A DNA stretch of 43,707 nt, taken from the UHGV virus genome UHGV-0360526; one strand, given 5' to 3'. Numbering within the stretch: position 1 is the first letter of the stretch; each line of letters begins with the position of its first letter. A model generated the notes under the pieces. It was given only the letters and a program-made list of their open reading frames with translations, made no database searches and was not told where the DNA came from. A program made the translations under genes and the position numbers. This document shows, in pieces, positions 9,027 through 38,481 of the stretch. Origin of the DNA: a virus.

Positions 9027-9220
9027 AAATTTGGTTACCGATTCTAGTATTTATCCTTATCGCAGGGGCACTCGCAAGTGCTGAGTTAGATAGCCGTACT
9101 TTAGAAACGAAACGTGAGTTGTATCAGGACTGTATAAAGGATTATACTCCAGGTACAGAGCTTCATGCACAAGCTGTAAGAAGTTGTGCGCTGATGGCTG
9201 AAACGCAGACTCGTTCCTAA
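9023..9220 (+). CDS. small membrane or secreted protein
   Basis: 65-aa ORF with N-terminal hydrophobic segment KIWLPILVFILIAGALASA; ATGA overlap with upstream gene. Confidence 0.45.
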   Translation: MKIWLPILVFILIAGALASAELDSRTLETKRELYQDCIKDYTPGTELHAQAVRSCALMAETQTRS

Positions 9221-9594
9221 TGCGTATCTGGACGCTACAACTCGCTAAGTGGCGGTTAGCTAAGCAGAAAGGATTTCACGCTGTGGATATCACCGTGAAG
9301 TCAGGGCGAAAGGAACTCGCCCCCGACTGGGATTTCCTAATGGCGTATAAATCTTCTGCCCAAGACGCTGTCGCTGAACGTGAGTACACGATAAAGTATT
9401 TGTACAAACTCGAACGACTGTTAGATACCGATGCCGAAACCTTAGTGTCGTTACTTAGACACGAAGATTTGGTTTTGATGTGTTATTGTCCCGCAGGTAA
9501 GTTCTGTCATCGTCACCTACTGGCGAACAAACTTCAAGAAGTGGGAATGTTGTTCGGTATCGACGTTGAGTTGTGTGGAGAATTAACCGAATGA
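9220..9594 (+). CDS. DUF488-like protein
   Basis: 124-aa ORF with C-terminal LMCYCPAGKFCHRHLLA resembling the conserved C-x-C...CHR signature I associate with DUF488; from memory, not searched. Confidence 0.35.
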   Translation: MRIWTLQLAKWRLAKQKGFHAVDITVKSGRKELAPDWDFLMAYKSSAQDAVAEREYTIKYLYKLERLLDTDAETLVSLLRHEDLVLMCYCPAGKFCHRHLLANKLQEVGMLFGIDVELCGELTE

Positions 9595-10120: not shown

Positions 10121-10681
10121 GTGACTACTTACGTACCTGATTTAAGTCTGGCCTCAGCCGAATTGGTGGTCGCTTTAATCAACCACGATAACGGTTCACG
10201 GTTGTCTCTAAGCGAAATCCGTATTAGCAACACTACGGCAAACCCGTCCCCGACCACGTCGCGTCGTAACACAATGACAGAGATTACAAAAATCAGGAAA
10301 CCTGATGGCGCTTCTGTGGTTGTTTATTACGACCGTTTGGATGCGGACGAAGTGTTAGCGTCTGAACCTATTTTGATTTCGTTAGACGGTACTGAAGACA
10401 ACCTTCGCGACATTTTAGGTGTTGTAAATGAATTCTGCGGAACGAACTTACAACCCGAGGATTTACGTGCTTCAGATATCACCTTAGGTAACGAACCCAT
10501 TGCTGTTAACGTTGCCGACGATTCTCCTGCGTGGATGAATGCGTTTATGGTAACGTTATTCGATACAACCGAACGAGCATTAGCAAACGAAGATGATGCG
10601 ATCTTCTGTATTGGTGATGATGCTGTTCTTACCTTTGAGGTTCCAGATGACGACTCAGTTGAAGAAAACCCGGCTACATGA
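10121..10681 (+). CDS. hypothetical protein carrying a C-terminal domain shared with the 644-aa protein at 16081
   Basis: Listed ORF starts at 10076 inside the terminator hairpin; GTG at 10121 preceded by RBS ggagg is a more plausible start; C-terminus (YYDRL..CGTNLQPEDL..DDAVLTF) aligns with C-terminus of ORF 16081-18015. Confidence 0.5.
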   Translation: MTTYVPDLSLASAELVVALINHDNGSRLSLSEIRISNTTANPSPTTSRRNTMTEITKIRKPDGASVVVYYDRLDADEVLASEPILISLDGTEDNLRDILGVVNEFCGTNLQPEDLRASDITLGNEPIAVNVADDSPAWMNAFMVTLFDTTERALANEDDAIFCIGDDAVLTFEVPDDDSVEENPAT

Positions 10682-10887
10682 ACTTGACCGTTTTACCGGT
10701 AATGGAGGCCAATGCAAACTTTTATCAAAACTTAACAATCCCAAATCATGAAGCGCGGAGTTGGGCATCACTTTCACGTTAGAAGATGATGGATTAAAAC
10801 CAGTATAATAATCCGCTTATAAAAAATATTGGGGGGGGGTAAAGCACCTCTCCAGATCTTTTAGCTCCCGATAGAGAATTAAATATC

Positions 10888-13800
10888 ATGGCTAAAGCGG
10901 TAAAGAAAATTCGTTTACACGATTTACGTCCGTACACCGGCGATATCGGTGAAGGCGTTTTACTTTTTTCGAAAGACGAAAGGGATTATCAGTTACCTGT
11001 CCGAGAGATTGTTGCGGATATTGACACCGTCAGAAACGCGGTTGCTGACGCACAAACGGCTGCAGCCAAATCGCAACAGTCTGCAACAGAAGCTACGCAA
11101 GCAAAAGACTTAGCAGAAGCAGCGAAGCAAGAAACTGACACGTTAGCTTCCACCATTAGCGAGCAAGCGAAAACCGTTGCTACTAAAACTGCTGAGGTTA
11201 GCAAAAAACACGCTGAAGTTTTAGCCGCGAAAACTGCCGTAGATACCGTATCACAATCGGTAAATGAGAAAGCTCAAGCTGTTGCCACAAGCGAACAATC
11301 GGTGACGGCCGCAGTGGCAGATGTAACTAAGAAAGCAGAAACGGTTACGCAAAAAGCCGGGCAAGTACAACAGACGGCTACCAGTATCGCAAATACCGCA
11401 GCTTCAGTTGAGGCCAGTAAGGGCGCAGTGGAAAAGGTTGCTGCGCAGGTCACGAAAGATAAAGAAAGCTCAGAAGGCGCAGCTACGCGCTCGGAATCAG
11501 CTGCACTGCGTGCGGAGAAAATCGCTGCACAGGGCTTAATCGACGCTAGTACGACTGGTAAAGGTATCGTTAAACTTAACAATACCCTGACTAGCGAATC
11601 CGTGACGGAGGCTGCTACACCGTCTACAGTTAAGCAGTTGAATGACGAACTACAGTTAAAGGCTAACAAACATTCGCCGAATTTTACGGGTAAGCCGACG
11701 TCACCAACACCCCCGAAAGATTCAAACGACACGAGCATCTCCACAACGGCTTGGGTGCGTGCCGCGATTGCGGAATTGGTTGGGTCTTCACCTGAAACGT
11801 TAGATACCTTAGCGGAATTAGCCGAGGCGTTAGGTAATGACCCTAACTTCGCGACTACGATTACTGAGAAACTTGCGCAGAAGCAACCTATCAGTCCGCT
11901 ACTCACCGCTATTGCCGCAGTCACATCCGCAGCAAACAAGCTCCCCTATTTCACCGGTGCTAATAAAGTCGGATTAACTGACTTTACAGAAACAGCCAGA
12001 ACCCTGTTAGCGAAAGGGACAACTGCGGATATCATCAATTTCTTGGGATTAAAGGCCACTGTAGATAAAGCGAATGGCGCGTTACAGAAAAACTCTAACG
12101 GCGCTGATATCCCAGATAAAGAAACGTTTGCCCGCAATATCGGCCTATCGCCTGACACCTATCTGCGTTTCCGTGGCGAAATGCCTCTAGATGCTGATAT
12201 TAACACATTTGCTCCAAATACCAATTACACAGGAACGTGGGCTAAGTCGACATCAACCAATGCGTCGATGGCAAAACACTTCCCAGAAGACGGTGCGGTC
12301 GGTTATCTGGAAGTGTATAAAGCCGGTAATTACAGCGGTGCGCAACGTTTTACCTGTCGTAATGGTAACGTGTACAACCGTATGTTGTCAGGTGCGTGGA
12401 ATGGTGCCAATGGACCCTGGTCACCGTGGAGAATGGTAACTACTGGTGTACGTCCGTTATCTACCTCTATAGACTTGAACTCTCTGGGTGGCGCTGAGCA
12501 TATGGGTAACTGGCGAAACTCGTCCAGTTCGCTGGCTGTTTTTAGCAGACATTACCCTGAAGAAGGTGGTGGCGCGCAAGGCGTACTAGAAGTAATGGAA
12601 GGTGGTCTTTTCGGACGGTTGCAACGATACACCACACGTCGTGGTACGATGTATGTTCGTGGTTTGACCGCAACATGGGATTCATCAAACCCGCAATGGG
12701 AAGATTGGATTCAGGTTGGTTATCAGACTGACGGTGCTTTCTTTAAAGCCAATTTTAACGATCTCGTTAAACCGGGACGTTTCAGTGTCACTGGTGAAGC
12801 AACTAATGGTCCACTTACCGGTTCTTCTGGTGAAACCATATTAGGCGTTTGTGAAGTTACCTTACGCTTAGACGGTACAGGGGTCGAACAGAATTATACT
12901 ACATACGGTACGGGTGTAGAAACTAAAGGTCGTAAATTCCAACGTATCCGTACGGGTAACGCTTGGAGTGACTGGCGTGAGGTTTTCACATCGTATTCGC
13001 TTCCGCTGGTATTAGGTATCGGCGGTGAACGTGCGAATGTTGATCCTTTAGACTGGCAAACCTATGACTTTAAACCGGGTGAGTTAATCTGTACGCCGCT
13101 TAACACCATGAAAAACATTCCTGCGGGAATGGATTGGGGTGTTATTGACGGTAACTTAGTTAGCATTCTGGTTGGTCCATCAGATGGCGCATCCTCAGGC
13201 CGGAGTATGTTGGTTTGGCGTAGTACGGTGTCTACTGCCAACTATCGATTCTTTGCAGTACGTATCGCTGGTGAGAAAGGTAGTCGTACGATTACGCCAC
13301 GACAGATGCCTGTATTGAATGCAGCACACACCTGGGCAGAAAAACAGACCTTTGCAAAAGGGTTAGCAGGCGAGTTAACAGGCAATGCTTCAACCGCAAC
13401 GAAATTAAAGACCGCACGTAGAATTGGTGGAGTCGCTTTCGACGGTAGTGGTGATATTAACCTCCCAGGTGTTAACCAACAGGGCAATCAAAACACCACG
13501 GGTAATGCTGGTACAGCCACTAAACTTCAAACCGCCAGAAATATTAACGGTGTGAGGTTCGATGGTTCTGCTGACATCAACATCAACACTCTGGTGGGCC
13601 GTGGTCGGGTTACTGCTCTATCCGGATCAAACAAAGGTACGCCCGGTATTCAGATGTACGAAGTTTACAATAACGGTTATCCGACCGCTTATGGTAACTT
13701 GCTGCATTTGGGCGGTTCTACCGCAGTGGGTGAAGGTGAACTGTTAATCGGTTGGTCGGGCACGAGCGGTGCGCACGCACCCGTTTATATTCGTAGTCGT

Positions 13801-15486
13801 CGAGACACTAACGATGCACCGTGGTCAGATTGGGCACAAGTTTATACTGCCCGTGACAGTATTCCTGGTGTAAATGCTACCGGTAATCAAGATACTACCG
13901 GCAACGCCGCTACCGCGACGAAACTGAAAACCGCTCGCAGAATCGGCGGCGTTACCTTTGACGGTACTGGGGATATCAATTTACCAGGGGTTAACCAGCA
14001 AGGCAACCAGAATACGACAGGTAATGCAGCAACCGCTACCAAGTTACAAACAGGACGTAGGATCGGTGGTGTGGTTTTCGATGGGACGAAAGACGTTAAT
14101 CTTCCTGGAGTAAACCAAGCCGGTAACCAACCGACTACGGGGAATGCTGCGACTGCGACTAAGCTCCAGACTGCACGAAATATAGGTGGCGTAGCTTTTG
14201 ATGGCACTAAGGACATCAATTTACCTGGCGTAAACCAGACGGGTAATCAGTCGACCACCGGAAACGCGGCCACTGCAACAAAGTTGCAAACTGCAAGAAC
14301 CATCAACGGTATTGCGTTTGACGGCACTAAAAACATCGAAATAACGGCTGAGAGTTTAAATCTTGGTCAAACTGTAGAATTGGCCGGTGGGTCATTGCAG
14401 AAGAAACAGAACGGTGCCGATATTCCAGATAAAAGGAAATTCTTACGAAATGTTGGTGCCCCGAACACAACAACCATATCTTTTAATGGTGGTGCCGGAT
14501 GGTTCAAACTGGCAACTGTAACGATGCCACAAGCCAGTTCCGTGGTTTACATAAGCATGATTGGCGGTGCAGGGTTTAACGTTGGTTCCCCGCATCAAGC
14601 GGGTATTTCTGAGCTGGTTCTGCGCGCCGGGAATGGAAATCCAAAAGGTATCACTGGTGCTTTATGGCGACTGACCTCAGTCGGCTTTACTAATTTTGCA
14701 TGGGTGAATACATCTGGTGACACCTACGATATTTATGTTGAAATAGGTAATTACGCCACGGGTGTTAACATTCAGTGGGATTACACCAGTAACGCCAGCG
14801 TAACGATCCATACAACGCCAAGTTATACGGCTAATAAACCAGCAGGACTAACAGACGGAAACGTCTATCTGATTTATAGCACACACAACAAACCTAACGC
14901 TGGTGACATCGGTGCATTACCGTCAGGGGGCGGTACTATAGGTGGCGATTTAACCGTTAACGGTAAATTGGTCACTAAGTACCCTGATTTTCGAATCGCT
15001 TACGGCAACTACGGCTTTATGTTACGTAACGATGGTGCCAATACCTATTTCTTAGTAACCGACGCCGGACAAGCTGCAACGGGTTCCTGGAACGGACTAC
15101 GTCCGTTGTATTTTAATAACGCTAACGGCCAAGTAACCTTTGGTCATAACGTTACTGGCAGCGGTAACGGTTCGTTTAACGACGTACAGATTCGTTCTGA
15201 CCGTCGTAACAAACGTAATCTGGTGAAACTGGATAAAGCTTTGGATCGGTTAGAGTTACTAACCGGTTATTTGTACGAAATTCAGCATCCGGATGACGGT
15301 TGGCAAACCTCTGTAGGTCTAATTGCTCAAGACGCATTAGAAGCGTTACCTGAACTTGTGTCTGAGGATGATGATGCCATTTCAGGCGAAAAACGTTTAC
15401 GTCTAAATTACAATGGTGTTATTGCGCTGTTAGTAGAGGGTATGAAGTCTCTTCGCCGAGAGCTTAAAGAGCTTAAGGAGAAATAA
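10888..15486 (+). CDS. long tail fibre protein with tandem fibre repeats and C-terminal intramolecular chaperone (peptidase S74-like) domain
   Basis: 1532 aa; Ala/Thr/Gln-rich coiled-coil-like N-terminal region; six ~40-aa repeats (GNQxTTGNAATATKLQTARxIGGVxFDGTxDINLPGVNQ); C-terminal SDRRNKRN...GLIAQD...LRLNYNGVIALLVEG resembles the autoproteolytic chaperone domain of phage fibres/endosialidases. Confidence 0.8.
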   Translation: MAKAVKKIRLHDLRPYTGDIGEGVLLFSKDERDYQLPVREIVADIDTVRNAVADAQTAAAKSQQSATEATQAKDLAEAAKQETDTLASTISEQAKTVATKTAEVSKKHAEVLAAKTAVDTVSQSVNEKAQAVATSEQSVTAAVADVTKKAETVTQKAGQVQQTATSIANTAASVEASKGAVEKVAAQVTKDKESSEGAATRSESAALRAEKIAAQGLIDASTTGKGIVKLNNTLTSESVTEAATPSTVKQLNDELQLKANKHSPNFTGKPTSPTPPKDSNDTSISTTAWVRAAIAELVGSSPETLDTLAELAEALGNDPNFATTITEKLAQKQPISPLLTAIAAVTSAANKLPYFTGANKVGLTDFTETARTLLAKGTTADIINFLGLKATVDKANGALQKNSNGADIPDKETFARNIGLSPDTYLRFRGEMPLDADINTFAPNTNYTGTWAKSTSTNASMAKHFPEDGAVGYLEVYKAGNYSGAQRFTCRNGNVYNRMLSGAWNGANGPWSPWRMVTTGVRPLSTSIDLNSLGGAEHMGNWRNSSSSLAVFSRHYPEEGGGAQGVLEVMEGGLFGRLQRYTTRRGTMYVRGLTATWDSSNPQWEDWIQVGYQTDGAFFKANFNDLVKPGRFSVTGEATNGPLTGSSGETILGVCEVTLRLDGTGVEQNYTTYGTGVETKGRKFQRIRTGNAWSDWREVFTSYSLPLVLGIGGERANVDPLDWQTYDFKPGELICTPLNTMKNIPAGMDWGVIDGNLVSILVGPSDGASSGRSMLVWRSTVSTANYRFFAVRIAGEKGSRTITPRQMPVLNAAHTWAEKQTFAKGLAGELTGNASTATKLKTARRIGGVAFDGSGDINLPGVNQQGNQNTTGNAGTATKLQTARNINGVRFDGSADININTLVGRGRVTALSGSNKGTPGIQMYEVYNNGYPTAYGNLLHLGGSTAVGEGELLIGWSGTSGAHAPVYIRSRRDTNDAPWSDWAQVYTARDSIPGVNATGNQDTTGNAATATKLKTARRIGGVTFDGTGDINLPGVNQQGNQNTTGNAATATKLQTGRRIGGVVFDGTKDVNLPGVNQAGNQPTTGNAATATKLQTARNIGGVAFDGTKDINLPGVNQTGNQSTTGNAATATKLQTARTINGIAFDGTKNIEITAESLNLGQTVELAGGSLQKKQNGADIPDKRKFLRNVGAPNTTTISFNGGAGWFKLATVTMPQASSVVYISMIGGAGFNVGSPHQAGISELVLRAGNGNPKGITGALWRLTSVGFTNFAWVNTSGDTYDIYVEIGNYATGVNIQWDYTSNASVTIHTTPSYTANKPAGLTDGNVYLIYSTHNKPNAGDIGALPSGGGTIGGDLTVNGKLVTKYPDFRIAYGNYGFMLRNDGANTYFLVTDAGQAATGSWNGLRPLYFNNANGQVTFGHNVTGSGNGSFNDVQIRSDRRNKRNLVKLDKALDRLELLTGYLYEIQHPDDGWQTSVGLIAQDALEALPELVSEDDDAISGEKRLRLNYNGVIALLVEGMKSLRRELKELKEK
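13381..14361 (+). repeat. in-frame tandem coding repeats (~120 nt / 40 aa) within the tail fibre gene
   Basis: Two copies at 13381-13590 and four at 13882-14361 encode GNQxTTGNAATATKLQTARxIGGVxFDGTxDINLPGVNQ; copies differ mainly at synonymous positions. Confidence 0.8.
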
Positions 15487-15489
15487 AAA

Positions 15490-15993
15490 ATGGGGGTAGC
15501 ATCTGGATGGGTCGGTTCTTCGGCCAAGAACGAAACGGGCGAACAATGGATGAGCGCTGCTGGTAGTAAATTAGGACTGGGTAGACCTTTTATGATGAGT
15601 CAAATGGTGGGAAGATCTATGGGCTGTAAAATTGCAACCGCTGCATATAGCGATTCTTTAGGTAAGAAATGGGGCGCGGTAGGACCAAGCTGGCCGTTAA
15701 ACCAGAAAAATCAGGGAACCATTCAAAACGCTGGTAACTGCGGGGTGGGAACTTTAGTAGGTATCGAGTTACAGTTAACGACGGTAGTTGCTAACGCAAA
15801 GCCTACTTTAGCGGTTTACTTACAAGGCGGCAGAACCTCTAACATTACCGTAAATTTAGGTGGCAACACCTGCGCGCTGACCTATCAGCAGGTTATTAAC
15901 GGACAGCATTATTACTGGACTAATAACATCAGCGCTGCGTTCCAAAACGTGATGAAATCAACAGGCGCACTACGTGATTTGAGAATTAGCTAA
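15490..15993 (+). CDS. hypothetical Gly-rich protein downstream of tail fibre (possible fibre accessory or adhesin)
   Basis: 167-aa ORF starting 4 nt after the fibre stop; Gly/Asn-rich; function inferred only from position. Confidence 0.4.
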   Translation: MGVASGWVGSSAKNETGEQWMSAAGSKLGLGRPFMMSQMVGRSMGCKIATAAYSDSLGKKWGAVGPSWPLNQKNQGTIQNAGNCGVGTLVGIELQLTTVVANAKPTLAVYLQGGRTSNITVNLGGNTCALTYQQVINGQHYYWTNNISAAFQNVMKSTGALRDLRIS

Positions 15994-16080
15994 TTATTTT
16001 TCAAGTGGAAGCGCTTGAAATCGTAATCGGGGGGATGTTTTAAAAGACTTTCTACGTCCCCCTAAACTTAAAGGTGAGTT

Positions 16081-18015
16081 ATGATGTTGGTGCGCGATAT
16101 TAAAGATTACACCGAACTAACAGCATACGCGTTAAATTCGTTGTTAACACTTGACAAACCAGAAATATTCGACGAATCCGTCACGATGACGGTAGACCAA
16201 GAAACGAACTATGATTACGTTGGTCAAGTTACTGGTCGTGTTTCTGTGGCTAGTCCCACTGAATATAAAATTGCGATGTATACCTATACAACGGGAGAGT
16301 ACGCGCAAGGTGAATCACCATTAAACGAATCAGGTGAGTTTAATTTTAAACGAACATGGCCGGGGACAAAACAATTTCGTTTAATTAGAATTGCTGATGG
16401 CAAATGGATTTCTACGTTAGAGTTCCCATTGTGCATACGTAGTTACCATATGCCAGAAAACGCGGACCCTGAAACGATCAGGATTATGAAAGATCGTTGT
16501 TATACTTACGATCAGGCTGTTGCTACTCTTGCATTAATGGCCTACGGTCATGAAAAGGTAGAACAGTTTGTAAAAGGTCTTTTAGCGCTGGTCAATGAAG
16601 ACGGTGGTGTTAAATTCTACGTAAACCGACTTTCGGCTAAATCTTCGCGAAATTATTACCGTATGGGCAACGTCGCGTGGGTACTTTACGCTTTAGCTTT
16701 TTATCTTGAAAAATTTCCTGCCGGAAATCTAGCGGCACAGGTTCATGAAAAATTAACACTTTCCTTAACCTGGCTGGAAACTTATAAGGTAACGCAGGAG
16801 ACAGATCGCCGCAAAGGTTTATATCTTGGTGGAAAGGGTCGTTTTGTTACTACCGAATCAGGCGAACGTGTTTTTGAAGAAGACTACGTTGCACCTTTTG
16901 CGGCTTTAGAACATCAGGTAGATATTTGGTTCCTGTTCGAATTACTAGGGCGCGTCGGTTTTGATGCATACCAACAAAAAGCAGCGGACTTCGGTAATAG
17001 AATAGTAGAAGCTTTTTGGATGGAAGACGAAGGACGTTTTCGTCAGGGTGTGAGAGAAACAGAAGATGATAACGCAGCTGCGTTAGATCAGTCCAGTTGG
17101 GGTGGGCTATTTGCGGCCAAATTTAAACCAGAGTACGCCGAACGTTGTCACGCTTTTATGGAGAAATTTCGTTCGGAAACCTCTGAGTGTCGTGGCTACA
17201 CACCATACAAAACCGAGTTTGGTTACCCTACTGCTAAAGAAGGGGTGTGGGTTGAAGGTGCCGCCGGTGTTGCGTTATTCGAACGTCAGTTAGGAAATGA
17301 TAAACGTGCTGTTGAGATCATTAACGACTTAGATGTTCTTTTATCAGAATACGGTTATCGTGATTCTTGCGATGATCCTACCTACGATACGCTGCCGCCG
17401 TGGTGGTCAACCACAAACACTGCATGGGTGCTTTTAGTCTGTAAGCCAAGTAATTTTTGGCTTGTAGATAAGCCTCCTTTAACGGAGAGATATAATCCGC
17501 AGAATAAATTTTTACCAGATATTTCATTAAACTCTTTAAATCTTGTAATTTCGTTAGTGAATCACGATTTAAAAACAGATTACACGGAGTCTGATGTTGA
17601 AATCAGCAAGATTTCACTTAGCACGGAAGAAAATCGTGACACAACAGCGATAATGGAAATAAAACGTCCTAATAAACGGTCGTTACAGATCTATTACAAC
17701 CGTTTAACCGCAGCGCGGTGGTTAAACCAGCAACCTATTCTGGTAAAGGTCACCGGTAACGGTTTTACTACACGCGATCTGATCGACGGAATTAACGCGG
17801 CTTGTGGTTGTAATTTACAACCCGACGATCTTACTGACGACACATTTACCGTAGGGAAAGACGCTGTAACGTTACAGGTTTCACCCAACTCGTTAGGTTA
17901 TAAAGGTCAATTCTCCGTTCTGGTTTTCGGTAACGATGAAGAAGCCGCTGTGGTAAAAGACAACGATTTAATCGTTACCGCAGATAACCGTGTCTTAACA
18001 TTCGGAGGTCACTAA
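16081..18015 (+). CDS. putative (alpha/alpha)6-barrel glycoside-hydrolase-like virion protein with C-terminal fibre-docking-like domain
   Basis: 644 aa; central region has repeated helix-pair signatures (YDQAVATLALMAYG, NVAWVLYALAFY, LDQSSWGGL, TNTAWVLLV) typical of six-hairpin glycosidases; C-terminus homologous to ORF 10121-10681; enzyme assignment is tentative. Confidence 0.35.
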   Translation: MMLVRDIKDYTELTAYALNSLLTLDKPEIFDESVTMTVDQETNYDYVGQVTGRVSVASPTEYKIAMYTYTTGEYAQGESPLNESGEFNFKRTWPGTKQFRLIRIADGKWISTLEFPLCIRSYHMPENADPETIRIMKDRCYTYDQAVATLALMAYGHEKVEQFVKGLLALVNEDGGVKFYVNRLSAKSSRNYYRMGNVAWVLYALAFYLEKFPAGNLAAQVHEKLTLSLTWLETYKVTQETDRRKGLYLGGKGRFVTTESGERVFEEDYVAPFAALEHQVDIWFLFELLGRVGFDAYQQKAADFGNRIVEAFWMEDEGRFRQGVRETEDDNAAALDQSSWGGLFAAKFKPEYAERCHAFMEKFRSETSECRGYTPYKTEFGYPTAKEGVWVEGAAGVALFERQLGNDKRAVEIINDLDVLLSEYGYRDSCDDPTYDTLPPWWSTTNTAWVLLVCKPSNFWLVDKPPLTERYNPQNKFLPDISLNSLNLVISLVNHDLKTDYTESDVEISKISLSTEENRDTTAIMEIKRPNKRSLQIYYNRLTAARWLNQQPILVKVTGNGFTTRDLIDGINAACGCNLQPDDLTDDTFTVGKDAVTLQVSPNSLGYKGQFSVLVFGNDEEAAVVKDNDLIVTADNRVLTFGGH

Positions 18016-18635
18016 TGGCTGAACTGGTAGGAAAGGTGCGCATTCATGAACTGGAGACGCTTTCAGAAGACATCACGGGTGTAGTAGTCTTAGCGTCTAA
18101 GGAACAAACTGAATACCAACTCCCGATTGAGAAATTAGGGGGTGGTGAGGTTACAGTGAGCCCGTCGGCGAATAACATCCTTAAGTCTAACAGCGATGGG
18201 TTGTTTGTTGACGGCACTCATCCGATTGTACCAAAAATGGATGCAAAAACCTTATCGGGAAATATGGTGGTAGAAAAAACGTTGACAGGTGGTGCGGTAA
18301 TCTGCAAAACAACAGTTGACGTTAATAATAGACTGGGGATTTCGCAATTATCTGGAGTGTCAATTTATACCCAGTGTCTGTTGGAAAATAAATTGGTTTA
18401 CCTGGCAGAAGACGGCAGTATTATTGATGCGTACTTCTACATTAGTAATACAAAGAACACAGCCAGTACAATAACCCACACCATTCGGGTTGTCTTAGCG
18501 AAAGTACCTTCTAAAGTTGTCGATATCACCGATTTGTCTGAAACTGAGGTGCAGTATCAGGATGCTAATTTGCCTGTTAAGATCGTTATTAAGCATCTTA
18601 CAGGGACAACACTTTCCCAGAACGGAATGAAATAA
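18015..18635 (+). CDS. short tail-fibre-like protein sharing the N-terminal domain of the 1532-aa fibre
   Basis: 206 aa; N-terminus MAELVGKVRIHELETLSEDITGVVVLASKEQTEYQLPIEKL aligns with fibre N-terminus MAKAVKKIRLHDLRPYTGDIGEGVLLFSKDERDYQLPVREI; TAATG overlap with upstream gene. Confidence 0.55.
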   Translation: MAELVGKVRIHELETLSEDITGVVVLASKEQTEYQLPIEKLGGGEVTVSPSANNILKSNSDGLFVDGTHPIVPKMDAKTLSGNMVVEKTLTGGAVICKTTVDVNNRLGISQLSGVSIYTQCLLENKLVYLAEDGSIIDAYFYISNTKNTASTITHTIRVVLAKVPSKVVDITDLSETEVQYQDANLPVKIVIKHLTGTTLSQNGMK

Positions 18636-26485: not shown

Positions 26486-27334
26486 ATGTCTCTTACGTCA
26501 AAACAGAAACTGCTAAAACTCATCAACACTGAAAACAATATTGTTCCGCCATTGACCTTCAGTGATGTTGATATCGGCGAACCTACTGGTACTGGGGTTG
26601 ATACCCAGGTGGTTCTGACTTCTAAACTCAAAGGCGATGAGTCTACTACTTTAACCGTGACTTACCATCGTCGTAATTTGCCCGAATACCTAACAGGTGA
26701 GTTGGTATTCGGTAACGACGGTGTTGTAACTGCTGCAGATTTGCTTAATGCGATCAACGCAAAATACGATTTAAATATTCTGCCGTCGGATATCATTGAT
26801 GCGAAAGTTGAAGGTGAAACCCATCAGCTTACCGCTAACGAGAAATCCTACGAATGGTGTGGCGAGGTGACACTCACGCTACGCGACCCTATTGATCTGG
26901 CTAAATTGTTACCTGTTACTCAATTAGAAAACCTGGTAGAGTATCCGTCCACTAAGAAAGGTAACGCAGCGGTTTATTCTTATCCAATTGACTTCACCGC
27001 AGAAAAAGATTACCTCGATCCGATTACCATTAACGACACCGTAGACTTAGTAGAGTTAGCCACTAAACTGACTAACGTCGTTGATGAGAAATGGGTAAGT
27101 GTACCTAAGAACACTGCTAATAACCTGTACGGTGCTAAGGTTATCTACGACGGCCCTACCGCAGGTTTCGAAGGTGCAAATACGAAGTACACGCGTGTGC
27201 TGGTACTCGCCCTAAGCGGTATGTGTTCTAACCTGACCGGTAAACTGTTAATTCACTTTAACGGAACCGATCGTCCGAAGTCGAAGATTGAATTAGCCAA
27301 GACTAATTCGGTCTTACCGGGATTCTTAGATTAA
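26486..27334 (+). CDS. hypothetical protein, member 1 of a four-gene paralog family
   Basis: 282 aa; N-terminal pattern (L..LI.......TF.DVD.G.P......T.VVLT) shared with ORFs 27348, 30488, 31098. Confidence 0.55.
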   Translation: MSLTSKQKLLKLINTENNIVPPLTFSDVDIGEPTGTGVDTQVVLTSKLKGDESTTLTVTYHRRNLPEYLTGELVFGNDGVVTAADLLNAINAKYDLNILPSDIIDAKVEGETHQLTANEKSYEWCGEVTLTLRDPIDLAKLLPVTQLENLVEYPSTKKGNAAVYSYPIDFTAEKDYLDPITINDTVDLVELATKLTNVVDEKWVSVPKNTANNLYGAKVIYDGPTAGFEGANTKYTRVLVLALSGMCSNLTGKLLIHFNGTDRPKSKIELAKTNSVLPGFLD

Positions 27335-27347
27335 GAGGATTACAGTA

Positions 27348-27824
27348 ATGACCAGTCAAGAAACTATCTTCGATCTTATTAAAAAGGCTAACCCAGACGC
27401 TGAGTTCGACACCGCCAAAGTCACATTGGGCGAGCCCGTCGTAAGTACCGGTACGTACAACACCGAAATTACGGTTGTTCCGGTTAAGAATCTCGGTTAT
27501 GTTAATAAGCAAACGTTCCAGTATAACCGCATTGATGCAGGTTTGTATTTCCTCAACGTATTGCCGAAACTGTTAGTTGAAACAGCCGCCACAACTGCGG
27601 ACCTGTTGCCTGTAGTTAACGAGCAGTATGGCTTAACCCTTACCGAAGATGACGTATGGGTAGAGCAGGTTGGTCAGTTACCGCTGGACGGTAGTGCAAT
27701 CGAGCACGGTATTTTCTTCCGTCCCGAGTGTTTAACCTGGGTCGGTGGTTTTACAGTGCGGGTTGCGCGTAAACCGGCTGCTGAAACACGGCCAGCCAAG
27801 CCATCACGCGCTAAGAAGAAATAA
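27348..27824 (+). CDS. hypothetical protein, member 2 of the paralog family (basic C-terminal tail)
   Basis: 158 aa; RBS agagga; N-terminal family pattern; C-terminus RKPAAETRPAKPSRAKKK. Confidence 0.55.
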   Translation: MTSQETIFDLIKKANPDAEFDTAKVTLGEPVVSTGTYNTEITVVPVKNLGYVNKQTFQYNRIDAGLYFLNVLPKLLVETAATTADLLPVVNEQYGLTLTEDDVWVEQVGQLPLDGSAIEHGIFFRPECLTWVGGFTVRVARKPAAETRPAKPSRAKKK

Positions 27825-27828
27825 CGAC

Positions 27829-27862
27829 AGGGTGGGGTAATCCCACCCTCTTTTCTTTTTTT
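27829..27862 (+). terminator. rho-independent terminator
   Basis: Stem agggtgggg-taat-cccaccct followed by cttttctttttttg. Confidence 0.8.
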
Positions 27863-27885
27863 GTGTAAAAGAGGAGTTAAACAAA

Positions 27886-28476
27886 ATGGCCGAACGTTGG
27901 ACTAAAGAAGGTATTATTGGATCAAAAACAGATTTAGAGGGTGGGTACGTTAATGACCCCGACGATAAAGGTGGGGAAACCTGTCACGGGGTAACACTGA
28001 CAACCGCACGCGAATACGGGTATAAAGGAAGAATGAAAGATCTGACCCGTGCGCAAGCGTTTGATATTTACGATCGCGGTTGGTGGAAGAAACTTAAACT
28101 CGATGAGATTTTCGCTATCTCGCCCTTACTCGCAGACCGGATGTTTGATTTTGCTATTAACTCTGGCCGCGTTAACTGTGTGAAATCGTTACAACGTATT
28201 CTCAACGTTTTAAATAACGAAGGGAGACTTTACGCAGATATTGACACCGACGGGGGCATGGGGCCTAAAACGCTAGGTGCCCTGAATGCTTATCTGAATT
28301 ACCGTAAAGGTGAGGGGTTAGGCATCTTAATCTTTGCGTTAATCTCACACCAGGTAACCTACTACACAGAAATCTCCGAAAAACGTAAGAAGAATGAAAA
28401 ATTCGCTTACGGCTGGTACGGACGCGTGTACAGGGAAATGCCGGATTATGTAGTGAAGGCGGGGTTAGTAAAATGA
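27886..28476 (+). CDS. GH108-type muramidase (endolysin-like) with C-terminal peptidoglycan-binding region
   Basis: 196 aa; N-terminal LEGGYVNDPDDKGGETCHGVT matches the glycoside hydrolase family 108 signature; C-terminal DGGMGPKTLGALNAYL resembles the associated PG-binding domain. Confidence 0.8.
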   Translation: MAERWTKEGIIGSKTDLEGGYVNDPDDKGGETCHGVTLTTAREYGYKGRMKDLTRAQAFDIYDRGWWKKLKLDEIFAISPLLADRMFDFAINSGRVNCVKSLQRILNVLNNEGRLYADIDTDGGMGPKTLGALNAYLNYRKGEGLGILIFALISHQVTYYTEISEKRKKNEKFAYGWYGRVYREMPDYVVKAGLVK

Positions 28477-30487: not shown

Positions 30488-31033
30488 ATGGCTAAAGCTT
30501 TCAATCTGCAGCTCATTGAAGCTGTTAAAGCTAAAAACCCTGAAACTGCTTCTAAACTGACCGTAAATGATGTCGATTTCGGGGCCGTAGAAGCTTACAC
30601 CCCGACCGGTAAAAGCGACGCCCGTAACACTAAAGTTGTCCTGACAGCGAAAGAAAGCAGCGCTAACTTCACCGGTAATAAAGAATTTCATTATATCCGT
30701 CTGGCTTCCGCTAACCTGATCGGTGCCAAAGCTTACCAGCAGGAAGGTAGCCTCGAACTGGAAAACGCTGCCATTGTAGCCAAACTGAACGAAGAGATGG
30801 TTACTAAAGGTTATGTAGATGACGCGTTTGCAGAAGGCGAACTCACTATTGAGAAAACTGACGGCGAAAGCGGTGCTAAAGTTTACACTGTCAAAGTAAA
30901 CGATGCGCACATCAAATTCTTAGCCGGTACCATTGCCACCTTCACCTATACCAACCCGGTTCCTCCGAAGACAGCTCTGAGCGGGCTGGAAGGTGAACTC
31001 GATGGTTTCACCGCACCGGGTATCGGGGGCTAA
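30488..31033 (+). CDS. hypothetical protein, member 3 of the paralog family
   Basis: 181 aa; RBS gaggt; C-terminal GELDGFTAPG shared with member 4. Confidence 0.6.
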   Translation: MAKAFNLQLIEAVKAKNPETASKLTVNDVDFGAVEAYTPTGKSDARNTKVVLTAKESSANFTGNKEFHYIRLASANLIGAKAYQQEGSLELENAAIVAKLNEEMVTKGYVDDAFAEGELTIEKTDGESGAKVYTVKVNDAHIKFLAGTIATFTYTNPVPPKTALSGLEGELDGFTAPGIGG

Positions 31034-31037
31034 TTAA

Positions 31038-31070
31038 ATCGGGGGGGGGTAACCTCCCCGATATTTCTTT
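31038..31070 (+). terminator. hairpin containing G9 tract (weak terminator)
   Basis: atcggggggggg-taacct-ccccgat followed by atttcttt. Confidence 0.4.
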
Positions 31071-31097
31071 AACTCGTACTATTAAGGATTTAAGATA

Positions 31098-31628
31098 ATG
31101 GCTGCTACTAACCAGATGATGTTGGTCGCGCTTTATAATGCTGCTAACACTGAGCTACCACATCAGGTTACTGATAAAGAAGTGTCCTTTGGTCTCCCTA
31201 CTGCGCTGGAAGGCGAAAGTAAGAATACCAAAGTTACCATGACTGCACTGCCAGGTTCTGAGAATTTCAAAGGCGCTATCGAACTGCATTACGATCGTCT
31301 GGAACCGGGAGTTGTAGGACGTATTGAACTAACTGACGATCTGTCTCGTTGGGAAGATCAAAACGAATTGCGCGCATGGTTACAATATTACATCAACAAA
31401 GTAAAACCTGACGATGCTATCGCACCAGCTGACGTTTCTTATTCTACCGAAGACCAGAAAGACGAACATGAAAACGTCACTCTGCGTACGGTAACGTGCA
31501 CCGTTACTGAAAAGAACCTCCGTTATAAACCGGGCGTAATGGCAACTTTCGTAATTACACCGAAAGTTGTTGATAATCGTATTGACCTGGCCACCACCAA
31601 CGGTGAGCTGGACGGTTTTACGTCCTAA
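31098..31628 (+). CDS. hypothetical protein, member 4 of the paralog family
   Basis: 176 aa; RBS aagga; C-terminal NGELDGFTS. Confidence 0.6.
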   Translation: MAATNQMMLVALYNAANTELPHQVTDKEVSFGLPTALEGESKNTKVTMTALPGSENFKGAIELHYDRLEPGVVGRIELTDDLSRWEDQNELRAWLQYYINKVKPDDAIAPADVSYSTEDQKDEHENVTLRTVTCTVTEKNLRYKPGVMATFVITPKVVDNRIDLATTNGELDGFTS

Positions 31629-32362: not shown

Positions 32363-32910
32363 TCATCGTCTCCTTTAATCAACCCTAATTCGATTAACAA
32401 TTCAAAATCGATATGACGGAATCTTGTGTCGAAGTCCGATTCCCAATCGATACGGATACCCTGGCATTCTTCTGGCGTTAGCTCAGGAAAAATCACGGTA
32501 TTAAATTTCTCTCGCTCATCGTAAAACCCATCAATCGGTGAGTTCGGGTTACGTGTTGCGAAGATAGTAATGCCGGGGAAGGACAATGCCAACACAGTGA
32601 TAGATTCTGCGCTGGGTTCGCTTAAAGAGCGGCGTAGAAACGCAATTTTGTGACGTGGGAAATCCAATACCCGTTCTTCAAACCCTGGGTTACGTTTTTC
32701 AATTTCCGCGACCGACAGGTCAGTAAGTTCGGTGCAGTACATTGGGATGATTACAGTCACGCCGTGACGAATCAGTAAGCGTTTTACGTCATCGGTAAAA
32801 TCTTCACCGTTAATCACCACATAACAACCGAATAGCTTACTGTTTTCCAGAAACTTATCCAGAAGTCGAATTCTACGCTTCGTAATATTGTTGATCAGAA
32901 TTGGTTTCAT
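32338..32910 (-). CDS. hypothetical protein
   Basis: 190-aa ORF; start overlaps the 3' end of the radical SAM gene. Confidence 0.5.
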   Translation of the reverse strand: MKPILINNITKRRIRLLDKFLENSKLFGCYVVINGEDFTDDVKRLLIRHGVTVIIPMYCTELTDLSVAEIEKRNPGFEERVLDFPRHKIAFLRRSLSEPSAESITVLALSFPGITIFATRNPNSPIDGFYDEREKFNTVIFPELTPEECQGIRIDWESDFDTRFRHIDFELLIELGLIKGDDECLLLVKA

Positions 32911-34195
32911 CTTTGGCTTCTCTTAATAATTTTTCCTTTTGGGCACGTTCACGAACACAGCGTGGGCAATAACACATGCTCGTGTCGTGGAACGCTTTTG
33001 CTGACGTCGTACCCATCTTCTGTTTCCAGTATTCCGCCACCATCAGTTTCGCTGTCGTCCAGCCACACTGACGACGTTCAGCGTGATACGCTTTACGGTC
33101 TTCTAACGTTCCTTCCCCGTTCTCGTAAGAAGCCGCCGCACAGCTACCACAAGCGTGTTTCATCGGACAACCTAAACAGGTCTCTGGGTAGTTGGTATAT
33201 TGCGTTTGAATCTCTTCTAACAATTTACCGTTGTCCAGACTGACGAATTCCCGACCTACCAACTCAAACACCGCAGAACGCGACGTTACCGTTGACATAA
33301 AGCGGTTACAGCCAAAGATCTTACGGTCAAATCCTAAGCACGTCATGTGGGTTAACGTCCCGCAGAACGGACGTAAACGTTCTGGGTTCAACCGTACAGT
33401 GTCATTATACAGTAACTGGTCACGCCAGTTCGGTTCCCAAATCGTATCGAAATCCAACCCTTCTGGAATGATGTGCGATAAGATATTACGTGGATTGGTG
33501 TGTAATCCTTTTTCAACCCAATAATCTATCACATCCATCATCTGTAAAGCGATTGATGTCGCCATGCTACGCGGCATAACGTCTTCGAAGGTTACGTTCC
33601 CAGAAATTGTCCCACCGCCAGTAATGTCAATTAATGACTTCATCCCCGCAGCATAGAACGGCAGTGTTTCTAACGTAAAGGTCGCTTTTACGCCGAGTTC
33701 TGCAATACCAACCTCTTTTAAGTAATTATAGCCACGTACTGCGGCTTCGTAAGAACCCTGACGCGTCGTTGTGAAGATACGATAGCGGTCATGGGATTCA
33801 GGTAAACCATCAATCGAAACCCCAACCGAAAGTTTGTCTTTCCAACGTTCTACAATCTCACGGTTCAACGGACGATCTAACAGCGTTCCGTTCGTGGAGA
33901 TACTAAACATAAACGGTCGGTTGTGTTCTTTACACAACTGCTCAGCGGTTTCAAACGCAGCCAGCAGCAGTTTAGGCTGCATGAACGGTTCACCACCGAT
34001 AATGTCGATAATAACTTCGACATTCGGTTCGTTTTTATCACGTTCAAAACAGGCGTGTAAGAAATCAACAATGTCAGCCGCTTTGTTGTTACGTGGGTAC
34101 TTACGTTCGTAGCAATATTCGCAGTCCAGGTTACACGAAAGGTTGGTTACGATCTGATACGTTAACTGCTTAGGGAATTCATTTACTTGACTCAT
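32873..34195 (-). CDS. radical SAM enzyme with C-terminal SPASM-like domain (peptide-maturase-like)
   Basis: 440 aa; CNLDCEYC (CxxxCxxC) near N-terminus, GGEP SAM-binding motif, C-terminal Cys clusters CGTLTHMTCLGFDRKIFGCNRF and CLGCPMKHACGSCAAAS. Confidence 0.8.
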   Translation of the reverse strand: MSQVNEFPKQLTYQIVTNLSCNLDCEYCYERKYPRNNKAADIVDFLHACFERDKNEPNVEVIIDIIGGEPFMQPKLLLAAFETAEQLCKEHNRPFMFSISTNGTLLDRPLNREIVERWKDKLSVGVSIDGLPESHDRYRIFTTTRQGSYEAAVRGYNYLKEVGIAELGVKATFTLETLPFYAAGMKSLIDITGGGTISGNVTFEDVMPRSMATSIALQMMDVIDYWVEKGLHTNPRNILSHIIPEGLDFDTIWEPNWRDQLLYNDTVRLNPERLRPFCGTLTHMTCLGFDRKIFGCNRFMSTVTSRSAVFELVGREFVSLDNGKLLEEIQTQYTNYPETCLGCPMKHACGSCAAASYENGEGTLEDRKAYHAERRQCGWTTAKLMVAEYWKQKMGTTSAKAFHDTSMCYCPRCVRERAQKEKLLREAKDETNSDQQYYEA

Positions 34196-35102
34196 TTGCC
34201 GCCCCTCTATTACGTCCTGCCATCACTACGCGACGAATATATTCGTACGCCTCTACACCGATAGAGAAGGCCAGTTGGTTACATCCCGATTCCAGAACGT
34301 TAGGTGCATTCTGGAGTTGGTGCTCACCACCGTCTGCATTAATCCAAAGACTTTCGCTGCAAACGTTACACCCTTCTTCAAACACTTTACTTACTGTAAA
34401 GCCGCATTCACGACCATTTACTACATTCAGTCGTTCAATGTTGTCCTGAACCTGATAGTAGCCGTAAATAAAGTTCATGACGTGGTCAGGCGATAAAGGT
34501 TTTGGCATTTTCGCGTCTAAGAGTAACGTCATTGCACGGAAACCGTAATGGTAAATCGCGCTGTGCAGCTGAATAATATCTTCGTGCCAGCGTTTGTCCC
34601 CTAAACGGTCCCGTGTCAGGACACCCCAAGTCTGGACATTATCCAGCTCGTAGATCGTTTCCAGTGCTTCGTAACAGCCTTCGTCAATAAAGCGCATAAA
34701 CGGGCGCTCAGACGACTTAAACCCATCGATGCTAACGTAGACATTGTCAAACTGTTTTAGCAACGGGAGATGCGATTTACGCATCTTTAAGCCATTGGTA
34801 TACAACTGGTGTTTGAGTTCTGGACGAATCACTTTTAATTCGTCAACAAACGCCTCAATTTTACGGGTTGCCAGTAATGGCTCACCACCCGTCCACTGAA
34901 TTTCGGTAATGGTTGGATTAGCTTCCAGCGCTTCCAAAATTCGCTCACGTTGAAACTCTCGCGGAGAATCTTCACGATTCATGTAATAGGCTCCACCGCA
35001 GAAGCTACAATCCAGGTTACACTTGGACGTAGCGACTACGGACAATACGGTGGGTTTATCGTATAAACGATTCGATAACCTTGGTTCTGCATTGGTTGTC
35101 AT
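34179..35102 (-). CDS. radical SAM enzyme (second, shorter paralog-like)
   Basis: 307 aa; CNLDCSFC (CxxxCxxC), GGEPLL motif, C-terminal Cys residues ECG..GCNVCSES..GCNQ; 17-nt overlap with downstream rSAM gene. Confidence 0.75.
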   Translation of the reverse strand: MTTNAEPRLSNRLYDKPTVLSVVATSKCNLDCSFCGGAYYMNREDSPREFQRERILEALEANPTITEIQWTGGEPLLATRKIEAFVDELKVIRPELKHQLYTNGLKMRKSHLPLLKQFDNVYVSIDGFKSSERPFMRFIDEGCYEALETIYELDNVQTWGVLTRDRLGDKRWHEDIIQLHSAIYHYGFRAMTLLLDAKMPKPLSPDHVMNFIYGYYQVQDNIERLNVVNGRECGFTVSKVFEEGCNVCSESLWINADGGEHQLQNAPNVLESGCNQLAFSIGVEAYEYIRRVVMAGRNRGAANESSK

Positions 35103-37241: not shown

Positions 37242-38441
37242 TTATTTCGTACCCGCTTCTGCCTGAACGTCATCACGGGACGTCAAGTTAGCGTTAACGT
37301 GCACTGGAGCCTGAACCACACCGCCGTATTTCTTGTGGAGATAACCTGTGTGCGGGTTATCCGCCGCAATATGGTTTTGTAGGTTCTGATTCGCCTGACT
37401 GATTGCGTTCGTGTTATTCGCAACCTGTTGTTTAAGCGCATCCAGGTTTTGTTGCAGATTATCAATTTTCTGATCGGACTCATTACCCCGTTGTTCTAAC
37501 GCAGCAATGCGCTGAATCGCTTGGTTGAGTTTGGTGTTCAGATCGTTGATATTTTTCTGTAACTGTAACACTAGCGAATTTAGGTTCGCCAATGCCAATG
37601 CCATCTTCTGGTAGTTTTGGGCAACGATGTTAAGTTGGTCGTTCCACGCTTCCAAAGATTTGACAACAGCATCAATACGTTTTCCTAACGCTTCGTCTGC
37701 TTTCTTCAACGCATTAATATCAGTAATGGTTGCATCGATGGCAGATTGTACGTCACGGATAAGTGCACGGATCTCCGTTTCTGTTAACCCGTTAACCTGA
37801 TGAATATCCAGATGGTGGACATTACCCGTGGCGTTAATGTGCGCGTTCAGCGCGTCCAGGAAATCGTTTTTCAGGCTTTCGAGAATCGCTTTGATGTTCT
37901 CAAGCTGTACAGCATCACCCGCCGTTATCGCATCTTTGATGCCAGCGAGCACTGTAATGATATATTCGAAGCCGTAAATATCGCCGACGTCTTTATACGT
38001 TGGTGCCGAAGGAAACGTGTCCGGCACATTTCGCAAGTCTTTAAAGCCAACAGTTCGATTATCGAGATTCAGCTCGGCAATCGCCTGTTCTATCGCGGGC
38101 ACGTTTGCCGACTGCGGACCCCCGACTACTTGCGCTGATACCGTGATATCGGTCGGAATCGCGGTGTTCGTTACAACAACCGCCATTACCACTTCCCGGT
38201 TCTTCGTCAATTTCTCGTAAGCCGGGTGTGCAAAAATCAACTCGTAGTCCGTTCCGCGCTCATACGTCGCGTCGGGTCGATTGGCAACCCGCAAGCGGAA
38301 CGTATCAGCATAAAACGGTCCGTCAGGAAAAGCAAACGCACGGTTAACTTTACCTGTACCTAACGTAATCTGACGCTCCACGGCGTTAGAGGTTAGGCTT
38401 CCCGTTAAATCTAAAGGGTATTGGTATACAATGGAGGCCAT
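37242..38441 (-). CDS. tail-fibre-like protein (N-terminal attachment domain plus long coiled coil)
   Basis: Listed ORF to 38549; ATG at 38441 with RBS aaggagag gives MASIVYQYPLDL; N-terminus shares the P-x-G-P-F-Y motif region with the 1727-aa protein; C-terminal half is heptad-rich. Confidence 0.6.
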   Translation of the reverse strand: MASIVYQYPLDLTGSLTSNAVERQITLGTGKVNRAFAFPDGPFYADTFRLRVANRPDATYERGTDYELIFAHPAYEKLTKNREVVMAVVVTNTAIPTDITVSAQVVGGPQSANVPAIEQAIAELNLDNRTVGFKDLRNVPDTFPSAPTYKDVGDIYGFEYIITVLAGIKDAITAGDAVQLENIKAILESLKNDFLDALNAHINATGNVHHLDIHQVNGLTETEIRALIRDVQSAIDATITDINALKKADEALGKRIDAVVKSLEAWNDQLNIVAQNYQKMALALANLNSLVLQLQKNINDLNTKLNQAIQRIAALEQRGNESDQKIDNLQQNLDALKQQVANNTNAISQANQNLQNHIAADNPHTGYLHKKYGGVVQAPVHVNANLTSRDDVQAEAGTK

Positions 38442-38481
38442 GGCCACTCTCCTTAATCCGAGACGTCCTTGTCTCGTGGCG

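Follow-up and report, generated by a model that had tools for sequence, protein, structure and literature searches.

Two DUF7941 genes and a shared 42-residue N-terminal module in an exchangeable receptor-binding-protein cassette of an SPN3US-like chimallivirus

Positions 10121-18635 of the virus genome UHGV-0360526, analyzed here as a stretch of 43,707 nt (the window, whose positions serve as coordinates throughout), form an exchangeable cassette of accessory receptor-binding proteins in an SPN3US-like chimallivirus whose host is Salmonella, E. coli or Shigella. The cassette consists of two DUF7941 genes of the type represented by gp122 of SPN3US (DUF7941 #1 and #2) and a shared 42-aa N-terminal module that occurs in two classes, and it additionally holds a lineage-specific deletion and a domain fusion; all its features lie on the plus strand. 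Given the genetic linkage and the homology to a protein of the baseplate tip, direct docking of the N-terminal module on the DUF7941 proteins is the best single mechanistic reading of this arrangement, and we favor it tentatively, with somewhat less than even confidence. A first-pass annotation of the region had listed open reading frames (ORFs) at 10121-10681, 10888, 16081-18015 and 18015, all of which are present, and had interpreted them as a duplicated two-gene module in which an anchor-domain protein is followed by a fiber with a shared N-terminus.

The 186-aa product of ORF 10121-10681 (DUF7941 #1) aligns with residues 477-641 of the 644-aa product of ORF 16081-18015 at 34% identity over 169 aa (E=5e-30). 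This similarity had been described as a C-terminal domain of about 110 aa common to both proteins; the motifs quoted for it (YYDRL/YYNRL, PILI/V, CG.NLQP.DL and VLTF) all fall inside the alignment, but the shared segment extends over about 170 aa and takes up the entire small protein. The term C-terminal anchor domain applies to the 644-aa fusion only, the domain being elsewhere normally a free-standing protein of about 170 aa. Both copies score above the Pfam PF25613 cutoff of 27 bits, with 70.4 bits for #1 (10121..10681) and 56.5 bits for #2 (residues 475-644 of the 644-aa protein, 17503..18015), and both cover positions 3-156 of the 276 in the profile, which correspond to its N-terminal half. 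DUF7941 #1 is built of an N-terminal globular domain and a disordered tail ending in GDDAVLTF, and the tail of #2 ends in DNRVLTFGGH. In both copies the disordered tail spans about 30 aa and, according to Pfam and AlphaFold2 (AF2), the full-length form's C-terminal globular domain is missing, as in the known short DUF7941 form exemplified by Goslar gp23. In the AF2 model of DUF7941 #1, residues 1-150 reach a moderate predicted local distance difference test score (pLDDT 70-88) and the tail remains below 50. The structure-prediction check proposed in the first-pass annotation returned the fold of a solved peripheral-baseplate protein: the sole significant Foldseek match of this model is 9xqd_0 (PDB 9XQD), the N-terminal domain (NTD) of phiKZ gp127 (E=1.5e-7, probability 1.00, template modeling (TM) scores 0.52/0.62). 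A profile of short DUF7941 proteins searched against PDB sequences likewise reached PHIKZ127 (E=1.7e-5); neither the 186-aa nor the 206-aa protein gave a match when its single sequence was searched against the PDB, PHIKZ127 being reached by the profile only.

The fiber N-terminus said to be shared by the two downstream genes was also recovered, as a short module on otherwise unrelated receptor-binding proteins: the 1532-aa long tail fiber (10888-15486) and the 206-aa protein (18015-18635) match over their first 41 residues only (41% identity, E=2e-8). Both this similarity and that of the anchors are far beyond chance in pairwise alignment, the other check that had been proposed. A hidden Markov model (HMM) of the motif identified two intact copies in the window, at the start of the long fiber (10888-11013, E=7e-25) and of the 206-aa protein (18015-18140, E=1e-22), and one truncated vestige (10647-10703). 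Searched with HMMER against 1.84 billion representative proteins, the motif profile gave 18 matches at E<=1e-3; the eukaryotic P0149 among them was discarded as spurious, leaving 17 carriers. The motif is located at residue 1 in all 17, which comprise proteins of 133, 154, 156, 188, 205, 259, 273, 706, 710 and 1494 aa as well as fragments, and the 706-aa carrier is a SASA-type esterase. Motif-bearing receptor-binding proteins overall span 133-1540 aa, and the motif is rare and limited to the SPN3US-like phage clade. Judged from its position at residue 1 of such varied carriers and from its restriction to one clade, the motif therefore behaves as an N-terminal attachment module on interchangeable receptor-binding proteins. 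The motif was not found in the Goslar gp22-gp30 proteins checked, and tblastn matches in Felixounavirus (E 0.1-1) were rejected as chance, since they lie at the C-terminus of a hypothetical protein from the early region.

Two classes of the motif can be distinguished. Class 1, with the signature [VL]KKxRLH, is found in every gene following DUF7941 #1, in the scars described below and in all long fibers, and class 2, with the signature [VI]G[KT]xR[IV]HEL, in every gene following DUF7941 #2 and in two further proteins of 273 and 710 aa from related loci (L005_273 and L022_710). The class fits the position in all loci checked (9/9 after #1, 7/7 after #2). In genomes of the SPN3US type, a single gp122-type gene occurs together with a single motif gene, and class 1 is the only class present.

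The assignment to an SPN3US-like phage follows from gene order and protein similarity. Gene by gene, the order in the window equals that of SPN3US and Asesino: a methyltransferase (D12-class DNA methyltransferase, 1722-2537), a DUF488 gene (DUF488-N3a protein, 9220-9594), a small gene and then the product of ORF 10121-10681, with the methyltransferase and the DUF488 gene lying upstream of the cassette in positions conserved with SPN3US. That product is 45% identical to a protein found at one site in SPN3US-like jumbo phages (Seoulvirus, Erskinevirus). In SPN3US, a Salmonella jumbo phage of the Chimalliviridae, the ortholog is gp122 (original SPN3US numbering), with gp123 (156 aa) and the tail-associated gp124 (1005 aa) next in order; the N-terminus of gp123, MATVVKKKRLHELDSYDGD..., is the same motif as that of both fiber N-termini in the window. 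IMG/VR and sequencing data from Salmonella, E. coli and Shigella contain contigs of up to 226 kb with 82-96% identity in the ORF 10121 protein. The related contigs measure 220-226 kb, and the synteny with SPN3US and Asesino supports a chimallivirus origin, chimallin itself lying outside the window. Among the matches listed of the 169 positive records in a tblastn search, every one is a jumbo phage of 212-306 kb. A DNA-level search of sequenced phages gave short matches within the fiber only, with no close relative in the collection.

Comparison with related loci (designated by L numbers) indicates how the present arrangement may have come about. In L004, L012 and L013, DUF7941 #1 is followed by a 153-aa gp123-like motif protein, a gp124-like protein of about 1000 aa, the motif-bearing long fiber, one or more Gp38-like adhesins and a free-standing 170-aa DUF7941 #2. 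In the window, the end of DUF7941 #1 is overlapped by the vestigial 5' end of a gp123-like gene (10647..10751), which encodes MTTQLKKTRLHELDRFTGN and then runs into unrelated residues and a stop (motif HMM E=2e-9 to 4e-9). The vestige comprises the first 19 codons (10647-10703) and overlaps DUF7941 #1 exactly as in the relatives, of which L004, L005, L012 and L013 carry intact gp123-like homologs at the matching place. The right-hand edge of the scar is formed by the ~13 final codons of a gp124-like gene (10770..10808), ending in ..ITFTLEDDGLKPV and the stop codon: in blastn comparisons, the window is without L004 10583-13957, and homology resumes at L004 13958, 14 codons before the end of a 1002-aa gene. 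An alignment of nine upstream regions further identified a G+C-rich hairpin with a T run (10831..10862), resembling an intrinsic terminator, in which a GGGGGAGG..CCTCCCCC stem is followed by a TTTT run. Its stem is partly degraded in the window, where the hairpin opens with a G9 run. This putative terminator appears to be inherited from downstream of the lost gp124-like gene, and translation of the remaining 34-codon ORF might still yield the motif as a free peptide.

Because the scar keeps both a gp123-like start and a gp124-like end, the adjacency of DUF7941 #1 and the long fiber is the product of a deletion that removed the gp123-like and gp124-like genes between them, and this deletion-made adjacency is common to L010/L017, L011 and L020. 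The ancestral pairs are accordingly #1 with a gp123-like gene and #2 with a gene of the 206-aa type. The duplicated two-gene module of the first-pass annotation is therefore real as a pair, but its instance joining #1 to the 1532-aa fiber is a deletion artifact; in relatives the motif-bearing long fiber has no anchor gene upstream. The observation that each of the two paralogous DUF7941 genes lies directly upstream of a motif gene was borne out, and the pairing recurs in all related loci inspected, with one exception.

The slot following DUF7941 #2 varies in content. It holds the 706-aa SASA esterase in L020 and L021, motif proteins of 207 and 710 aa, in this order, in L022, a 205-aa motif protein in L005 (which also encodes an additional 273-aa motif protein) and, in L024, a motif vestige followed by a motif protein of 133 aa and a protein of 348 aa. 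Vestigial motif fragments lie between DUF7941 #2 and the present motif gene at L024:5892-5942 and L025:365-415, which suggests that recombination within or close to the motif has replaced cassettes repeatedly. The alignments of the loci demonstrate cassette swapping by recombination, with crossover points inside the DUF7941 genes; the DUF7941 tail and the downstream motif are therefore inherited together. In agreement with this, the correlation between divergence of DUF7941 #2 and divergence of the downstream motif is r=-0.05 for residues 1-60 and reaches 0.67, 0.82 and, in the tail, 0.91. Covariation was considered as evidence of physical contact and rejected, given that r climbs smoothly with physical proximity, as recombination tracts alone would produce; because the gradient follows proximity, linkage and co-adaptation are inseparable by covariation.

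In the window, DUF7941 #2 is fused in frame to the C-terminus of an (alpha/alpha)6 domain, and the N-terminal 473 aa of the resulting 644-aa protein (16081..17499) comprise, according to homology, AF2 and Foldseek, a helix and a beta-sandwich together with an (alpha/alpha)6 barrel. Over 100 enterobacterial prophage tail fibers, bearing four different N-terminal anchors (PF08400, PF12571, PF18668 and PF03406), have C-terminal domains that share 45-60% identity with its first ~470 aa. The two halves of the protein were modeled separately, and the (alpha/alpha)6 part was predicted with a pLDDT of 90.8. Its Foldseek matches are sugar epimerase/isomerase, rhamnosidase, GH76 and GH105 folds (E 1e-7 to 1e-4), at TM scores of 0.4-0.6 and 9-12% identity, and the Pfam scan matched the domain to no Pfam family. 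These models point to a receptor-binding or putative glycan-active domain of prophage tail-fiber origin. DUF7941 #2 is free-standing (170-171 aa) in L004, L005, L011, L012, L016, L020, L022 and L024; L017 carries the fusion too, as does cluster P0014 (97% identical), the sole other DUF7941-ended cluster among the homologs found. Where relatives have a free-standing #2, their homology to the window resumes at nt 17633, within the NTD of DUF7941 #2. The block 15643-17632 was therefore imported from a relative already arranged in this manner. The 644-aa protein was also considered as a homolog of SPN3US gp124, and no homology was found.

Several of these elements have known counterparts in chimallivirus particles. 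In phiKZ, gp127 caps the outer baseplate lobes, and a band of gp139 dimers across each lobe of the star ends at gp127 (PMC13250141). DUF7941 is chimallivirus-specific and is composed of an NTD, a linker that is disordered and a C-terminal domain; in Goslar the linker is predicted to dock on the next NTD in a head-to-tail fashion, purified gp22 makes filaments, and certain members are fused to sugar-binding or hydrolase domains (Goslar preprint, April 2026, bioRxiv 10.64898/2026.04.21.720040). Short forms consisting of NTD plus linker, such as Goslar gp23 and SPN3US gp160, are abundant virion proteins. The family is the same as paralog family B of SPN3US, of which gp122 is listed merely as a possible member. 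The sources conflict on the location of DUF7941, with SPN3US proteomics placing it in the head and the phiKZ structure and the Goslar preprint at the baseplate periphery.

Under direct docking, the short DUF7941 proteins would act as adaptor subunits that join the baseplate periphery through the head-to-tail contact proposed for Goslar, with each copy offering a socket for one class of N-terminal plug. The outcome would be two independent mounting points for horizontally acquired receptor-binding proteins and, with socket #2 fused behind a predicted sugar-active domain in the window, a branched complex with the 206-aa protein. The more specific proposal, that the gp122-type proteins and the 42-aa motif make up two orthogonal, co-evolving socket-and-plug pairs, which mount acquired enterobacterial fibers and sugar-active enzymes on the tips of the baseplate lobes and of which one socket is itself enzyme-bearing and forms the branched complex, is possible but held with more doubt. 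Direct docking is favored by the fact that a short DUF7941 gene has a motif gene, intact or vestigial, directly after it at every locus examined, except at #2 of L004, and that the stop of the former and the start of the latter commonly overlap. Within the window, the 206-aa gene start overlaps the stop of the 644-aa gene in this way (ATGA). The agreement of motif class with position and the restriction of SPN3US-type genomes to class 1 speak for docking too.

A number of observations weigh against direct docking, and part of them supports a different reading, which we take as the main rival and consider rather unlikely: that the motif docks on another conserved baseplate protein (a homolog of phiKZ gp139, gp26 or gp130, or a member of the gp131-like paralog family C), that the gp122-type proteins are independent subunits of a DUF7941 filament or of the baseplate lobe, and that the adjacency of their genes reflects an ancient tandem duplication, with DUF7941 genes serving as recombination handles. 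Long fibers, L005_273 and L022_710 carry the motif without an adjacent upstream DUF7941 gene, and the numbers depart from a one-to-one ratio, since genomes hold two anchors and two to four motif proteins; in L004, loss of the gene following #2 has left an orphan DUF7941 #2. The match of class to position and the co-inheritance of tail and motif are equally explained by duplication history and linkage, and the crossovers inside DUF7941 genes, together with the growth of the motif-divergence correlation with proximity, are as docking elsewhere would have it. Fibers of phiKZ attach through gp131-like domains, not through gp127 (PMC13250141). The motif also shows no detectable similarity to the DUF7941 linker in hmmsearch, where scores are negative or near zero; the idea that it mimics the inter-domain linker, prompted by a pattern discerned by eye (L..L..Y...G..V.S.P), was dropped after hhalign placed its best match elsewhere (E=0.43). 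In addition, the 644-aa fusion and Goslar gp86, gp92 and gp161 indicate that DUF7941 can bear cargo in cis, free of any plug.

The remaining DUF7941 genes of the window also bear on this rival. There are six DUF7941 genes in total (10121, the C-terminus of 16081, 26486, 27348, 30488 and 31098), and only 10121 and the C-terminus of 16081, which are mutually closest paralogs and have the ..VLTF tail in common, sit ahead of motif genes; that the four others have no motif partner is as expected if the motif docks elsewhere. Two of them, on the plus strand at 26486..27824, encode a full-length protein of 282 aa, which matches phrog_1037 along its full length (E=1e-62), and an NTD-only protein of 158 aa (ORF 27348; PF25613 103 bits, cutoff 27; Pfam E=2e-29). 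They are followed by a GH108 and PG_binding_3 endolysin (27886-28476), with no motif gene next to them, and the gene order across 26486-28476 is syntenic with Goslar gp22-gp24. The other two are short paralogs of 181 and 176 aa (30488..31628, plus strand), scoring 31.4 (30488) and 39 (31098) bits against PF25613 (cutoff 27), and no motif gene is found near them; a second G/C homopolymer run (31041-31049) lies between them. What docking elsewhere leaves unexplained is that the order from DUF7941 to motif gene, often with overlap, is kept across lineages that are only 33-45% identical, and that class-2 motifs are confined to genomes with DUF7941 #2. Regarding candidate gp131-like proteins, two large virion proteins of 435 and 1727 aa (phrog_2163, phrog_7449) are encoded within 37242-43665 on the minus strand and are probably counterparts of SPN3US paralog family C, the phiKZ gp131-like baseplate/fiber candidates.

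Virion proteomics of SPN3US adds two further points that speak against direct docking and bear on two additional alternatives. Paralog family B has been assigned to the head on account of its presence in tailless-mutant particles, and gp122 is undetected in the virion, where gp123 (7 spectral counts) and gp124 are detected and not labeled as head. The absence of gp122 from a proteome sensitive enough to register gp123 would be accounted for if gp122-type proteins were non-virion, chaperone-like assembly or attachment factors, made together with the downstream fiber and then released, and the gene overlaps, which suggest translational coupling, point in the same direction. Fiber chaperones, however, are usually encoded downstream of the fiber gene. 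Other DUF7941 proteins, including the short Goslar gp23 and SPN3US gp160, abound in virions, phiKZ gp127 is visible in the baseplate (PMC13250141), and the 644-aa fusion puts the module on a receptor-binding-type domain that is expected in the virion; we hence regard an assembly factor as improbable. The presence of family B in tailless particles and its label 'Head' would fit gp122-type proteins being capsid-associated and unrelated to fibers, with an incidental genomic position. Yet gp122 itself was undetected in those particles, the closest solved relative is located in the baseplate, the linkage to motif genes is conserved and one copy is fused to a tail-fiber receptor-binding domain, all of which make a head protein the least credible of these explanations, and a very improbable one.

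Beyond the motif, its two carriers in the window are unrelated. The 1532-aa long tail fiber (10888..15486), identified with Pfam and PHROG, consists of the class-1 motif, an Ala-rich helical shaft, Phage_fiber_2 (E=9.5e-10), repeats, Gp34_trimer (E=1.5e-16) and Peptidase_S74, a predicted intramolecular chaperone at residues 1437-1491 (E=2.7e-10); orthologs are encoded in L004, L005, L012, L013, L020 and L022. The fiber contains about five tandem copies of a unit of ~45 aa, GNQxTTGNAxTATKLxTARxIxGVxFDGxxDINLPGVNQ. It is followed by a 167-aa T4 Gp38-like adhesin gene (15490..15993), which matches Gp38_N over positions 1-40 of 40 (E=3.5e-20) and phrog_1121, tail fiber adhesin (E=2e-45); the Pfam scan (E<=0.01) gave Gp38_N alone, and not GP38 (PF05268). 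The succession of an S74-chaperone fiber, predicted to be self-cleaving, and a Gp38-like adhesin gene is an unusual mix of two fiber-tip maturation strategies, and relatives hold two adhesins. The short receptor-binding protein of 206 aa (18015..18635) combines the class-2 motif with a distal domain of ~160 aa, and its C-terminal part matches positions 684-841 of the 842 in phrog_33169. Elsewhere in the window, two adjacent radical-SAM genes (440 and 307 aa) lie within 32873-35102 on the minus strand.

Among chimalliviruses, the outer baseplate and fibers of Goslar have resisted modeling, and the phiKZ periphery is built in part only. In this context, the locus provides a concrete rule, the genetic coupling of a small subfamily of DUF7941 to a rare motif heading every exchangeable receptor-binding protein, with two motif classes and well-marked cassette boundaries. 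If the coupling is physical, it would explain how enterobacterial jumbo phages borrow T4-like and prophage fibers, it would identify the 42 residues and the partner gene that host-range engineering has to retain, and it would constitute the first attachment rule defined for accessory fibers of jumbo phages that form a nucleus, offering a direct means of re-targeting them. If it is not, the locus is still a well-documented case of fiber-cassette exchange with a deletion scar and a domain fusion. The DUF7941 family is already known, having been named as a functional family in the April 2026 preprint; the searched literature mentioning DUF7941 contained neither the coupling of gp122-type proteins to the motif, nor the two motif classes, nor the reversed fusion.

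Members of the DUF7941 family comprise phiKZ gp126, gp127 and gp143, Goslar gp22, gp23 and eight others, and SPN3US paralog family B with gp122. The window proteins resemble them in scoring above the curated cutoff, in the fold of the phiKZ gp127 NTD and in their restriction to chimalliviruses, and they differ from other members in that the gp122 type has a ..VLTF tail, has no C-terminal domain and is systematically followed by a motif gene. Like Goslar gp86, gp92 and gp161, DUF7941 #2 of the window is fused to a domain of predicted sugar-active type, but the cargo of the 644-aa protein is N-terminal to DUF7941, in reverse order to Goslar. With the gp122-gp123-gp124 module of SPN3US (Seoulvirus, Erskinevirus), the window shares the synteny of DUF488 gene, small gene and gp122; unlike SPN3US, it bears a scar where the gp123/gp124-like pair was lost, it encodes a second gp122-type copy to which a separate motif class belongs, and the motif has been acquired by its T4-like long fiber. 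Examples of branched or multivalent systems in which N-terminal anchors are conserved are CBA120 TSP1-4, G7C gp63.1/gp66, the SP6/K1-5 adaptor and phiKp24, and the likeness of the cassette to these lies in unrelated distal domains carried on a short conserved attachment module, in horizontal swapping and in one protein possibly serving as the platform for another. In contrast to the CBA120/G7C type, Pfam identified no T4 gp10-like or TSP1/Gp66 N-terminal (PF18668) domain in the 186-, 644-, 206- and 1532-aa proteins; the candidate platform in the window is the chimallivirus-specific DUF7941 module, and PF18668 occurs only in some prophage homologs of the (alpha/alpha)6 domain. Finally, in prophage tail fibers the (alpha/alpha)6 domain is distal and C-terminal, behind an N-terminal anchor, whereas in the 644-aa protein of the window it stands without an N-terminal anchor and carries DUF7941 at its C-terminus.

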